Assembly (NCBI GenBank): GCA_951406725.2
Contig: OX597828.1
Location: forward strand, 54,870,001-54,934,000
Source of the DNA: Octopus vulgaris
Lineage: Eukaryota
Length of the DNA: 64,000 nucleotides
Direction: 5' to 3'
The notes under the pieces are model-generated. The model made no database searches. It saw nothing but the letters and a program-made list of their open reading frames with translations, and was not told the origin of the DNA. The first letter of the stretch is position 1; every line of letters starts with the position of its first letter. Shown piece by piece: positions 16,827 through 60,645 of the stretch. A program made the translations under genes and the position numbers.

Positions 16827-16918
16827 ATTTATTATATAGAAGGAGCTTCTACAGGACTAGAACTGTTTCATGAATGAAACAGTTCTAGTCCTGTAGAAGC
16901 TCCTTCTATATAATAAAT
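16827..16918. repeat. Perfect palindrome, 45-bp arms, 2-nt spacer, in (TA)n context
   Basis: 16827-16871 is the exact reverse complement of 16874-16918. Confidence 0.95.
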
Positions 16919-17229
16919 ATATATATATATATATATATATATATATATATATATATAGAGAGAGAGAGAGAGAGAGAGAGAGAGAGAGAGAGATTAAGTG
17001 AGAGAGATTAAGTGAGAGACAGTGAGAGAGAGTGAGAGAGAGAGAAAGAGAGAGAGAGAGAGAGAGAGAGCTACTAGCATAGATAAACATTGTCAAACCC
17101 GAGACATATTTATGTGGAACACAAAATGCGTTTATAAAATAAAGAAAACAAATAACAAAGTAGAAGAAAAATATTATGTAAAGTCTTATCTCGGCAGCTT
17201 TTTCAAGACGGCTATAACTTATGTAATAA

Positions 17230-17550
17230 CCATGGTTCAGTGGTTAGAGCGTCGGACACACAATCATGAGGTACTGAGTTCGATTCCCATAGCGGGCTGT
17301 GTGTTGTGTTCTCGAGCGAGGCACTTTATTTCACGTTGCTCCAGTTCACTCAACTGTAGAAATGAATTGTGACGTCACCGGTGCCAAGCTGTCTCCGCCT
17401 TTACCTTTCCCTTGGATAATATCAGTGGAGTGGAGAGGAGAGGCTGGTATGCATGGGTGACAGCTGATCGTCCATAAACAACCTTTACCGGACTTGTACC
17501 TCGGAGGGGAACTTTCTAGGTGTAGTCGCATAGCCATTCATAACCGAAGG
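17230..17550 (+). mobile_element. SINE family D, full length
   Basis: tRNA-like head ATGGTTCAGTGGTTAGAGCGTC..GAGTTCGATTCC. Other copies at 43265, 46810 and 51832. Confidence 0.85.
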
Positions 17551-18994
17551 ATGTATTTTAAGTAATACTGTGCAGTCCAACGACGTGACCCGATGAAATT
17601 GTTGAAGTAAGCTAGGTGTTCGTTTCCAAGAGCAGACTGGCAAATGTGAATTATCTAGCAGTGTCTATGAGTATCAATATTCAAAAAGAACAGAGAGGTA
17701 GAGTGAGGAAGGAATTCAAAGACTCGAAAGGAAATAATGAGCTAGCAGTGGTTACGAAGCGAGACGAGATGAGGATACAGCTTGACAAAGATCAGATATA
17801 ATGAAAAAACAGAGTTAATAGCTAGCCGGAGAAATAGTGTTGTCAGTTAAATCTAGCGATGAGGGGGGGACAGAGTAGTTGTTCTCAGACATGATAAATC
17901 AGTTAAGAGTGGCAGAGGCAACAGACAGATAAGCATGAGAAAATTAAATGTTGTGGTTAAGGAGTGGAGGTATTAGGAAAATAAAATGCAATGAGAAAAG
18001 AGAATTTCAGTTAAGATAATGAGAAATTATAATGACTTTACATAGTGAGTAAAGACTCAGTAGAATTTATTCCTGCAAGAGAAGATTACATTAGAGAATC
18101 GATTAAATAGAGAGGTCTCATTTTAACATTATATTGTGAGCGATTCCCAGCAACATCATTTACGAACGCGATGATTTGCATTGCAGGGGGTGCAAACACA
18201 ATCTATTGGTTAGGACATGGTATAAAGCGCGCCCTGGGCTTGAAGAAGTGAGTGTAGGTGGCTAGAGAAGTACATTGTTTAGAAGCCCTATTTGAAAAGT
18301 AGCGCAGGTGAGTAAGGTAGCGTTGTCTGAAGTTGATGTAACGCAAGCAGCGTACTTTCCAACTACACGCTCATAGAAATAGGAATTTCTATGTCTTTCT
18401 GACGTCGCTAGTGTATGAATACTAATATCAACGACAGCATGTGACTTTCGTTGACTAATACAGACCCAATCTTCAATAGACCTCTTAAATGTTCTCCATT
18501 TTGTTACCTGAGCCTAAAGAACTAGGTACGTCTTACGAGCCTAAGCAATTATATGTTACGTGGAACCGAATCAAACTTTTTATTAAATAATACACACACG
18601 CACATGTGTATGTGTGTGTGTACCATTATCCAGTCATTTTCCTGTATAGTTAATTGTTAGTCCTACCACTGTATATAGAAGTGTTACTAGTTATGCTTTA
18701 CAGACCATATGTTGGGGAATATTAAGATAAAAAGAAAACCCAACCATAAATAATTAGCTCCCATGTACGTTTCACCATTGTAGTTATTTGGAACTCAACA
18801 CTGGATGTTTCAAGTGCATTTAGAGATGCCTAACTGTAATGAGTCATAAGAGGAACACCATATTGCAATCTGTTACAGAAATCTAATAAAGTGTCCCCCG
18901 GACGATCCATTGCGGTTAAACATCGAAATGCACTTAGAAAATCCAATGCTAAGTTCCATATATCTACAATGGTGAGACGTAAGTAGCAACCAAT

Positions 18995-19364
18995 TATTAC
19001 TTCGGTCTTAGCAAAGGCGGAGGTATTGTTTTCAGTCGTGTTTGTTTGTTTGTCCGTGGACAAGATATCTCAAGAACCGCTGGATGGATTCGGATGAAAC
19101 TTTCAGAGATGTTTGGCCCCCTGACTGGCACGAACTGATTAGATTTTGGGATCGATCCCGTTCTGGATAAGGATTCTGGATTATTTTTCGGTTTTTTCTT
19201 TTACTTAATTTTTGAGAGTGGTCGGGTTCATTTTAGTATTCTCCTTTGTGCGAGCAGTCGAGTTTATTTCAGGTATTCTCATTTTAAAAATCATCTCTGT
19301 GTAACCGTTGAGAGGACGTTGGTGTTGCCTTGGCGGAGGTTTGCGCTCCCTGAGTGCTCTTGTT
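18995..19364 (+). mobile_element. Helentron-associated (HINE/DINE-1-like) element
   Basis: 5' ATTAC(C/T)TC.G..TTAGC..GGCGGAGGT, (GTTT)n, 3' TTGGCGGAGG plus hairpin GCGCTCCCTGAGTGC. Inverted sibling at 24943-25264. Confidence 0.7.
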
Positions 19365-19989
19365 TAACCGAAGTTATTTCTTATTGAAGTATAAGTCTGA
19401 AAGCTGAGTCAACAGTGAGGAGTTCCAACGATTTAAATGCACAAGTCTTTGATATCCAAGTAGTTAAAAAGTGTCAGCAGAAGGGTATCCAAGCGTCATA
19501 GCCTGGATGGGGCCCCACCCGGCCTCCTTAAAGTTTAAGAAGTTAAAAGCCGAAATACTTGCCTAAGATTGGTTTCTTCTCTGGAGTTATGATGTTCAGT
19601 TCTTCTAAGAGTTTCTTACCACTACGTGTATGTCTGTGTGTGTGTGCACGCGCTTGTGTGTGCACGCGCTTGTGTGTGTACGTGCGTGTATGCGTGTGGG
19701 GTAAGTACAAAAGACACAAAAAAGACGAGGTAAAAAACAAACGAACAAACGGTATGTATTAGGTTGACGCTCAAGAAAATTGAAAGAACTCTTTAACTTT
19801 TCGTGTCTACACTCTTCTACAGGAAGGATAGCTGAGGAGAGGGAAAAATAGAGAGAAAAAACAAGCGTCTCCATTAGATGGTCACCGCATACTTACATAT
19901 ATATTTATACACACACACACACACACACACACATATACATGTATACACTCATGTATGAATAAGTGTATATATGCATGCATGCATGAATA

Positions 19990-59436: not shown

Positions 59437-59516
59437 TCACTGTACACGTAGCAGGATTAAATGCAATAAGATAAATTTAGGATTAATTTTATTACTTGCA
59501 AATCTGGTGACGTGTA
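59437..59516 (-). CDS. Candidate terminal exon of the unidentified convergent gene
   Basis: Minus strand acceptor tagttttcttcccttgatcaacag|TACACGTCACCAGAT followed by non-repetitive UTR-like sequence. The frame cannot be fixed, so the end is approximate. Confidence 0.25.
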
Positions 59517-59609
59517 CTGTTGATCAAGGGAAGAAAACTATATGGGAAAGTAAGCCATGTTTATCTCACATAAATTAACATATATTGGAGTTAACACACA
59601 CACACACAT

Positions 59610-59995
59610 AGGTGCAGGAGTGGCTGTGTGGTAAGTAGCTTGCTTACCAACTACATGATTCCAGGTTCAGTCCCACTGCGTGGCACCTTGGGTAAGTGTC
59701 TTCTATTATAGCCTTGGGCCGGCCAAAGCCTTGTGAGTGGATTTGGTAGAAGGAAACTGAAAGAAGCCCGTTGTGTATATGTGTGTGTGTTGTATGTCTA
59801 TGTTTGTCCCCCCCCCCCCCCCGCAACATCGCTTGACAACCAATGCTGGTGTGTTTATGTCCCCATCACTTAGTGGGTCAGCAAGAGAGACCGATAGAAT
59901 AAGTACTAGGCTTACAAAGAATAAGTCCTGGGGTCGATTTGCTCGACTAAAGGCAGTGCTCCAGCATGGCTGCAGTCAAATGACTGAAACAAATA
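59610..59995 (+). mobile_element. SINE family A copy followed tail-to-tail by an inverted partial copy (60030-60200)
   Basis: Match to 13527. Confidence 0.88.
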
Positions 59996-60426
59996 ATAGA
60001 AAGAAAGAAGGAACAAAAGAATATAATTTCTTTTACTTATTTCAGTTAATTAGACTGTGGCCATGCTGGGGCACCATTTTGAACAATCTTTTAGTCAAAC
60101 GAATCAACTCCAGTACTTATTCAATCAGTCTCTTTTGCTGAACTGTTAAGTTATGGAAATGTAAACATTCCAACTCCAGTTATCAAGCAGTGGTGGTGGA
60201 CAAAAAGACACATGTACACAGATAATATATACACATATACGTATGTGGGATTGTTGGTATGGCTGTTATTGTATGTGTGGAACAGTATTATAAAACATCC
60301 ATCTGATGTATATATAAATTTAAAATAATAAGGGTGAAAATTGAATATTAATTTGAATTAATATCAATTTAAAACCAGTGGTCTAGCATATTAAAACCCA
60401 AAGATTCAGAAAAATTATATTACATA

Positions 60427-60645
60427 ATATAAGAGGGATGACCACTAAGCGGACATCCATTATGCTAGAAGTAGATCCACTATGGTCTTACCACTAAGAA
60501 AGGAATGTTCTCAGAAAATTTAGCAAACACTCACGTTCTGGTGTTTGCTAAATTCTCTTGAGAACATTCCTTTCTTAGTGGTAAGACCATAGTGGATCTA
60601 CTTTTAGCATAATGTATATCCACGTAGTGGTCATCCCTCTTATAT
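60427..60645. repeat. Inverted repeat, ~104-bp arms, 10-nt loop
   Basis: AGTAGATCCACTATGGTCTTACCACTAAGAAAGGAATGTTCTCA / TGAGAACATTCCTTTCTTAGTGGTAAGACCATAGTGGATCTACT. Confidence 0.93.

Follow-up and report, generated by a model that had tools for sequence, protein, structure and literature searches.

Palindromes at TA tracts in an Octopus vulgaris window are for the most part probable insertion stubs of several Penelope-like element families

In a stretch of 64,000 nt of Octopus vulgaris (GCA_951406725.2, contig OX597828.1, positions 54,870,001 to 54,934,000 of the forward strand; hereafter the window, with coordinates counted from its first letter), seven palindromes, P1 to P7, occur mostly beside (TA)n tracts. 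With a probability of about 0.8, most of them are short insertion stubs of several unrelated families of Penelope-like elements (PLEs). Each stub would consist of two 5′-truncated copies of the 3′ end of an element, joined head to head at a TA-rich target. A first-pass annotation of the window had ascribed the palindromes to a single mechanism, a (TA)n-targeted PLE insertion with end inversion. That ascription is supported directly for P3, which contigs place in a high-copy family with two 3′ ends leading into (TA)n and with variable head-to-head junctions. It is supported by the anatomy of P2 (a complete putative minimal hammerhead, with the layout listed for Hydra-clade PLEs) and by that of P1 and P6 (a one-sided extension and a probable motif remnant), and it is unproven for P4, P5, and P7. 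Locus by locus, a PLE origin is very probable for P2 and P3 and quite probable for P1 and P6; the balance is slightly in its favor for P4, and it is doubtful for P5 and P7.

Seven palindromes with unrelated arms

The palindromes were located by comparing the window with itself in BLAST, simple repeats being masked. The arms were measured by aligning the left half to the reverse complement of the right half, and identities are ungapped.

16827–16918: P1, arms identical (45/45), spacer 2 bp
33702–34236: P2, arms of 176 columns, 91.8% identity, spacer 201 bp
34389–35013: P3, arms identical (136/136), spacer 353 bp
35119–35425: P4, arms of 140 columns, 90.7% identity, spacer 27 bp
44916–45207: P5, AT-rich arms of 141 columns, 96.4% identity, spacer 13 bp
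56357–56818: P6 (56326–56818 with its extension), arms of 226 columns, 91.8% identity, spacer 16 bp
60427–60645: P7 (limits by BLAST), arms of ∼104 bp

When the alignment of P7 is extended outward into TA, it reaches 122 columns (93.9% identity, spacer 10 bp). In P2, the spacer belongs to the left (minus-strand) copy. The arms are 91%–96% identical in five of the seven palindromes, most with indels, and 100% identical in P1 and P3. Both the masked self-BLAST and the arm alignments confirm the seven foldbacks of the first-pass annotation at the places it gave. Its description of arms of 45–225 bp without mutual similarity also stands, with 45–226 columns measured and the best match between arms of different loci (E = 3e-4) covering only 23 AT-rich bases. 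The arm-versus-arm comparison gives the seven palindromes no common termini; the first-pass annotation likewise saw no shared signature of a terminal inverted repeat (TIR) or target-site duplication (TSD). A TSD is unreadable inside TA runs. The spacing of about one palindrome every 10 kb holds as the average of one window, but three of them share a span of 1.7 kb.

A single common family for all seven is rejected, since the arms are unrelated. For P1 to P6, self-BLAST finds no copies of the arms elsewhere in the window, the tail of P3 excepted. The left arm and loop of P7 have a weak look-alike ∼250 bp downstream, at 60660–60855, with a score of 45; none of 1,969 random window segments reaches that score (maximum 44).

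Two older palindromes, overlooked in the first-pass annotation, occur at 18749–18998 and 25425–25809 (arm identity 77% and 86%). Each is near a copy of another repeat (18997–19364 and 24943–25263, 76% alike).

P3 in an apparent high-copy family with two 3′ ends

Four of 24 public sequencing runs were compared with 34480–35066, and P3 is the one palindrome tested in this way. The runs are X1, X5 (a second organism), X4 (with a guessed RNA label), and X21 (raw reads). The figures below come from 24 listed rows of 708 for loose ends, 15 of 63 for joints, and 40 of 55 for differences.

Contigs matching 34480–35066 number 13,143 in X1, 10,610 in X5, and 455 in X4. In X1, the summed depth, which is not a copy number, is 0.2–1.4 million over the spacer and 1.7–2.3 million over the arm. 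Spacer, arm, and tail of P3 are all covered by contigs and would therefore belong to one high-copy family. Copies of this family have two 3′ end points. Some enter (TA)n directly behind the arm end at 35013 (at least 29 contigs in X1 and at least 38 in X5). Others continue through the tail and diverge behind 35050–35065 (at 35050, at least 50 contigs in X1 and at least 61 in X5).

The segment 34480–34524 is the reverse complement of the arm start, so joints from it into the element would be head-to-head junctions. Among the 15 listed joints, at least eight are of the head-to-head kind (six from 34480–34524 and two between opposite strands), and all their positions differ. Three such junctions of the P3 family are common to X1 and X5.

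A 20-base word of P3 also occurs in metagenomes (three loci) and viral contigs (two). These matches are dismissed as chance, as all five share only 20–23 bases with P3.

Hammerhead motifs

The minimal type I hammerhead of metazoan PLEs is defined by Cervera and de la Pena (2014; PMC4209133). We used a descriptor of our own for this motif, with 200 shuffles of the window as background. Two loci carry a complete or near-complete motif:

33862–33967, minus strand: complete type I minimal hammerhead motif of P2 (descriptor match)
34847–34891, plus strand: near-complete hammerhead motif of P3

The strict descriptor has one match in the window, that of P2, against 0.025 per shuffle. In this motif, stem I is of 5 bp, the core CTGAAGA starts at 33962, stem II is of 10 bp with a long loop, and stem III is palindromic; cleavage is predicted after 33867. 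The active fold differs from the predicted minimum-free-energy fold. In P3, the last core base (34859) is C. In 29%–39% of the family depth it is A, and position 34886, a T in P3, is C in 75%–97% of the family depth; with these family variants the core is restored.

After the sequence had been seen, the descriptor was loosened (a bulge in stem II, a free last core base); it then gives four matches against 0.075 per shuffle, and none of the 200 shuffles reaches four. These are P2, P3, and a related pair at 6416 and 47567, outside the palindromes. The two members of that pair, at 6405–6460 (plus strand) and 47525–47580 (minus strand, in an intron of the host gene LRRC61), are 86% alike over 71 bp, with a canonical core, and are likely solo ends of another PLE family.

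In P1, each arm starts at a hammerhead-like 3′ half reading outward (GAAAC at 16876). This motif is a remnant at best, because it does not fit the pattern with a palindromic stem III. In P6, a degenerate hammerhead has a decayed core, and its 3′ half occurs at 56748 (plus strand) and 56428 (minus strand). In P1, P2, P3, and P6 the motifs read outward from the center; the copies are therefore head to head. The first-pass annotation had counted at least four palindromes with hammerhead motifs or halves. The motifs are where it placed them but are of unequal quality, with P2 complete, P3 near-complete, and P1 and P6 as remnants; the half-motif it listed beside P5 is outside the arms and oriented inward, and is rejected as a part of P5.

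In three palindromes, a copy starts close to the hammerhead motif. For the right copy of P2, the start is no more than 1 base from the predicted cleavage site; in P1 and P3, the short copy starts at the base of stem II. These are three post hoc cases and are a lead only.

One-sided extensions and TA tracts

In P1, P3, P4, and P6, extra sequence is present on one side only, between an arm and the TA tract. The extensions, and solo 3′ ends found elsewhere in the window, are as follows:

16759–16826, minus strand: extension of P1, 68 bp, reaching the (TA)n tract on its left; candidate tail of a PLE
34237–34327, plus strand: 91 bp separating P2 from the following (TA)n tract; either a tail or host DNA
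35014–35067, plus strand: tail of P3, 54 bp, one-sided, ending in (TA)n; copies of the family stop either at 35013 or behind this tail
right side of P4, ∼55 bp: extension, candidate tail from the sequence only
56326–56356: extension of P6, 31 bp, one-sided, likewise a candidate tail
39025–39058, plus strand: the terminal 34 bp of the P3 tail as a solo copy (33/34 bases, 97%), between TA runs
28622–28674, minus strand: diverged copy of the P3 tail (77%)
60241–60315, plus strand: solo 3′ end of a Naiad PLE, ∼75 bp, matched by eye to the last ∼70 bases of Naiad_Ovul and Naiad_Obim

The solo Naiad end runs into a TA run and lies 110 bp left of P7, separate from the arms of P7. One of its 12-base words occurs exactly twice in the published consensus file, at the ends of Naiad_Ovul and Naiad_Obim. 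Together with the solo copy of the P3 tail, it appears to show the same TA targeting and extreme truncation within the window.

In six of the seven palindromes, a (TA)5+ tract lies no more than 15 bp from one end, whereas random intervals average 0.59 such cases (none of 20,000 draws reaches six). Five have both ends within 110 bp of such a tract (random mean 0.33); the seven had been chosen by a reader who had noticed the TA tracts. The right end of P1 touches (TA)n. The left end of P4 is 6 bp from (TA)n, and its right end is followed by the extension and then by (TAA)n/(TA)n. P6 has TA runs on either side, and the right end of P7 is 5 bp from a short TA run. "Mostly embedded in (TA)n", in the wording of the first-pass annotation, is right as far as six palindromes have one end at or near a tract, but P5 is not adjacent to one. 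"Embedded" is also too strong, as the other end is usually 31–91 bp of extra sequence away from the tract.

Comparison with published PLEs

The insertion structure, presented as new in the first-pass annotation, is already published for PLEs (PMC8557442, PMC3846280). An inverted 5′-truncated copy with a one-sided tail of 30–40 bp, and a preference for (TA)n, are described for Naiad and Hydra PLEs, with Octopus families listed (Craig et al. 2021; PMC8557442). Head-to-head palindromic junctions are described by Arkhipova et al. (2013; PMC3846280), who propose self-priming for Penelope. The palindromes of the window share with these endonuclease-containing (EN+) PLE units the head-to-head inverted 3′ ends, the variable truncation, the one-sided tail, the (TA)n target, and the absence of a discernible TSD. 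They differ from them as non-coding stubs of 90–680 bp without an open reading frame (ORF) and with candidate tails of 31–91 bp, against 30–40 bp.

Hydra-clade PLEs (among them Hydra-1_Obim and Penelope-5_HM; files S1, S2, and S7 of PMC8557442) share the (TA)n preference and have a hammerhead near the 3′ end. The core and stem layout of P2 fits the hammerhead table of that clade (CTGAAGAT ... TGAA, with a self-complementary stem III). However, no arm matches the 3′ end of Hydra-1_Obim by eye, and a clade assignment would need the reverse transcriptase (RT). The Octopus Naiads (Naiad_Ovul, Naiad_Obim, Naiad_Omin) have the (TA)n preference and inverted structures and no canonical hammerhead. They could fit P4, P5, and P7, but neither inspection by eye nor a search with single words matches any arm to the ends of their consensus sequences.

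With the minimal type I hammerheads of PMC4209133, the motifs share a short stem I, a long stem II whose first base is bulged, and a palindromic stem III that needs a dimer. Most of those in the window differ in being decayed. Dual motifs on opposite strands, 100–700 bp apart, were already noted in Schistosoma (PMC4209133). In O. vulgaris, 31 PLE families are counted as recently active (PMC13282606); palindromes are not mentioned in the part of that article consulted.

Points against a PLE origin

Several results weigh against reading the palindromes as PLE stubs. In the sequencing runs, six of the eight listed junctions have a short side of only 20–27 letters, and no contig of X1, X5, X4, or X21 extends across the whole P3 locus. 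X21 carries the species label of X1 and holds 1,934 million letters of raw data; 2,125 of its reads matched 34480–35066, almost all of them at a TAA run, and 34780–35066, where a high-copy family should have drawn reads, received none. The P3 family is thus multi-copy in the contigs of three runs, while the raw reads of X21 are without it.

As to the hammerheads, Rfam finds no such family at E ≤ 1 across the window, nor at E ≤ 10 in 33700–35100. It returns 149 matches in the window, nearly all to microRNA models on repeats and hairpins, and none reaches the gathering score. Scanning thus yields nothing with Rfam and, with our descriptor, one complete match (P2), or four when it is loosened, a change that was itself made post hoc. 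P4 and P7 have no motif in the descriptor search. The 3′ half next to P5 (45271–45260) lies beyond the arms and faces inward. Hammerhead 3′ halves alone number 10 in the window against 2.1 per shuffle, which makes them weak evidence.

Other points concern the surroundings. P5 is the exception to the TA association, with ends 103 and 394 bp from (TA)5+ tracts. The two older palindromes are at least 466 bp from any TA tract. The candidate tails of 54–91 bp are longer than the published 30–40 bp. Single words from P1, P4, P5, P6, and P7 (five words) have no match in the cephalopod consensus of the PMC8557442 supplement. No Pfam match to RT, GIY-YIG, or transposase was found in 128 frames flanking the palindromes (127 of the 195 listed, plus one control LINE-like frame, LINE standing for long interspersed element, which was likewise without a match; the 68 left out are mostly distant or overlap short interspersed elements, SINEs). 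Stubs are expected to be without an ORF. No ORF link was found, so PLE membership relies on non-coding signatures and, for P4, P5, and P7, on analogy.

Proposed mechanism and alternatives

The steps proposed here are inferred from published PLE biochemistry. With AT-rich DNA in vitro, both strands are cut and extended, and the tail is bounded by two start sites of the RT (Frangieh et al. 2024; PMC11167929). A GIY-YIG/RT protein would cut both strands of an AT-rich site, and both free ends would prime reverse transcription from two nearby start sites on the RNA, one start yielding arm and tail, the other the arm only. Each cDNA would stop short, in many cases at the structured ribozyme or close to it. 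Joining of the two truncated ends would follow, an unequal truncation leaving a spacer. The lack of similarity between arms of different loci would reflect their origin from different PLE families, and the stubs themselves would be dead passengers.

A second path to the same structure concerns the inversion step only. The elements would be the same, but the first cDNA (or an antisense template) would fold back at an internal inverted repeat of short length and prime itself, so that the first arm, and not a separate priming event at the target, would be the source of the second. Such self-priming, proposed for Penelope in PMC3846280, suits the very short loops at four loci (2, 10, 13, and 16 bp) and the identical arms of P1 and P3. 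But the fixed tail-less end point in many copies of the P3 family better fits a second RT start site (PMC11167929), and in P2 the one-sided extra sequence, a putative tail, is on the shorter copy, which would be unexpected if it is a true tail. We regard fold-back priming as the less likely path, though the most serious of the alternatives.

Some palindromes, most plausibly P4, P5, and P7, could instead be non-autonomous DNA transposons, that is, miniature inverted-repeat transposable elements (MITEs) or foldback elements with long TIRs and TA targeting. P4 and P7 have no hammerhead, and spacers are short. O. vulgaris is reported to contain TIR elements and MITEs (PMC13282606), and TA-targeting Mutator-like elements exist in plants. 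Yet the seven palindromes share no termini and have one-sided extensions, and in the P3 family, the one family tested, the junctions are variable and the ends asymmetric, unlike those of an element with fixed TIRs. A transposon of this type is improbable.

Less probable still is a local inverted duplication of host DNA for some of the palindromes, by template switching during break repair at fragile (TA)n tracts. The absence of window copies of the other six arms, the P3 tail apart, would agree with it, as would the weak downstream look-alike of the left arm and loop of P7, although its score of 45 is marginal against a random maximum of 44. However, P3 belongs to a family that is high-copy in contigs, and hammerhead motifs at four loci are unexpected in random host DNA.

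Assembly or read fold-back artefacts, despite the 100% identical arms of P1 and P3 and the absence of a contig spanning P3, are very improbable, because five of the seven palindromes have diverged arms (most with indels), the ends are asymmetric, and independent runs contain head-to-head junctions of the P3 family, three of which have identical positions in two organisms.

An array of non-LTR retrozymes, defined by units in tandem that all carry a type I hammerhead (bioRxiv 10.64898/2026.07.22.740005), is rejected, as no tandem units with such a hammerhead occur in the window.

Double-stranded RNA and editing

All seven palindromes are predicted to fold into long hairpins as RNA. P5 is inside intron 1 of LRRC61 and P7 inside an intron of ANAPC11, and stubs in introns would form near-perfect hairpins in the pre-mRNA, predicted substrates of ADAR. 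Of 63,951 50-mers in the window, 1,591 have a reverse-complement partner of at least 90% identity within ∼2 kb. Simple repeats account for 693 of them, and 710 of the other 898 are inside the seven palindromes, a share that is partly circular and comes from one window.

At least three adenosines of the P3 arm, among the listed differences, read as G in X4 (16.8%, 21.0%, and 13.9% of the depth), against 0.05%–0.71% in X1 and X5. None of the three has a G upstream. This is a hint of RNA editing, in a run with a guessed RNA label and without DNA of the same animal. Expressed variant copies would give the same signal, which is family-wide and not specific to the locus.

Among the animals compared by Porath et al. 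(2017; PMC5625713), hyper-editing is strongest in octopus, which also has an exceptionally high potential for double-stranded RNA (dsRNA). Palindromic Harbinger in Xenopus and the massively edited Penelope in the lizard Anolis resemble the present palindromes as self-folding repeats serving as ADAR substrates. In contrast to these, the source repeats of octopus are not assigned in that article, octopus being excluded from its analysis of repeat classes. The suggestion of the first-pass annotation that such loci could be a large dsRNA source has one weak hint in its favor, the A-to-G signal in X4, and the precedent in lizard. Young repeats are the main editing targets across animals (PMC9989829). 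Palindromic PLE stubs are candidate source repeats for octopus hyper-editing. A search of the open-licence literature, with subscription articles and repeat databases outside it, turned up no paper that attributes octopus dsRNA to palindromes of PLEs; the families may already be recorded in those articles or databases.

A broader proposal has two parts, taken together. Self-folding PLE stubs, rather than SINE pairs, would be the main near-perfect dsRNA source, microsatellites apart, behind octopus hyper-editing, and their junctions would cluster at the hammerhead, recording ribozyme cleavage in vivo or stalling of the RT. As a whole this is rather unlikely. A cleavage record in vivo also runs against the conclusions in vitro that uncleaved RNA is the template and that hammerhead cleavage is dispensable (PMC11167929).

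Since the structure itself is already described, the gain is local: several apparently uncatalogued PLE families of octopus are named, and their possible labelling as MITEs by repeat finders is accounted for. Stub junctions, in their thousands, would form a natural record of how PLEs prime, stop, and invert, a step called unresolved in the cited papers.

Host genes and other repeats

Two convergent host genes are present in the window, with P6 between their stop codons:

38704–54527, plus strand: LRRC61, with an alternative first coding exon at 38004 (exon translation and protein comparison)
58142–62120, minus strand: ANAPC11 (Pfam zf-ANAPC11, E = 1.4e-16, and motif search)

Later exons of LRRC61 are at ∼45826, 47196, 48527, 49621, 50934, 52531, and 54444. 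Its alternative first coding exons, at 38004 and 38704, correspond to two annotated Octopus isoforms. Exon translation matches a protein cluster with members from O. sinensis, O. vulgaris, and O. bimaculoides. The exons are near-identical to the O. sinensis and O. vulgaris proteins, and one diagnostic position has the O. vulgaris residue. These exons are those of an Octopus, and the guess of the first-pass annotation that the DNA is from a coleoid was correct. Two coding exons of ANAPC11 were located (∼62010–62120 and ∼58145–58260, minus strand); its first codons were not located in the window by motif search.

Among the other repeats, frames resembling decayed LINE C termini occur at 20529–20927 (plus strand) and ∼47690–48000 (minus strand). 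We take them to be CR1-like and R4/Dong-like, respectively; the first has no Pfam match. Inverted SINE-like pairs form weaker foldbacks (72%–80%) at 63037–63364, at 59919–60122, and between 54178–54349 and 55979–56166. The first two were considered as further members of the palindrome set and rejected. A sequence of 497 bp occurs twice, inverted and with 97% identity, at 10234–10730 and 50024–50520. Each copy adjoins a (TAA)n tract, and the pair is likely the 3′ end of a young LINE.

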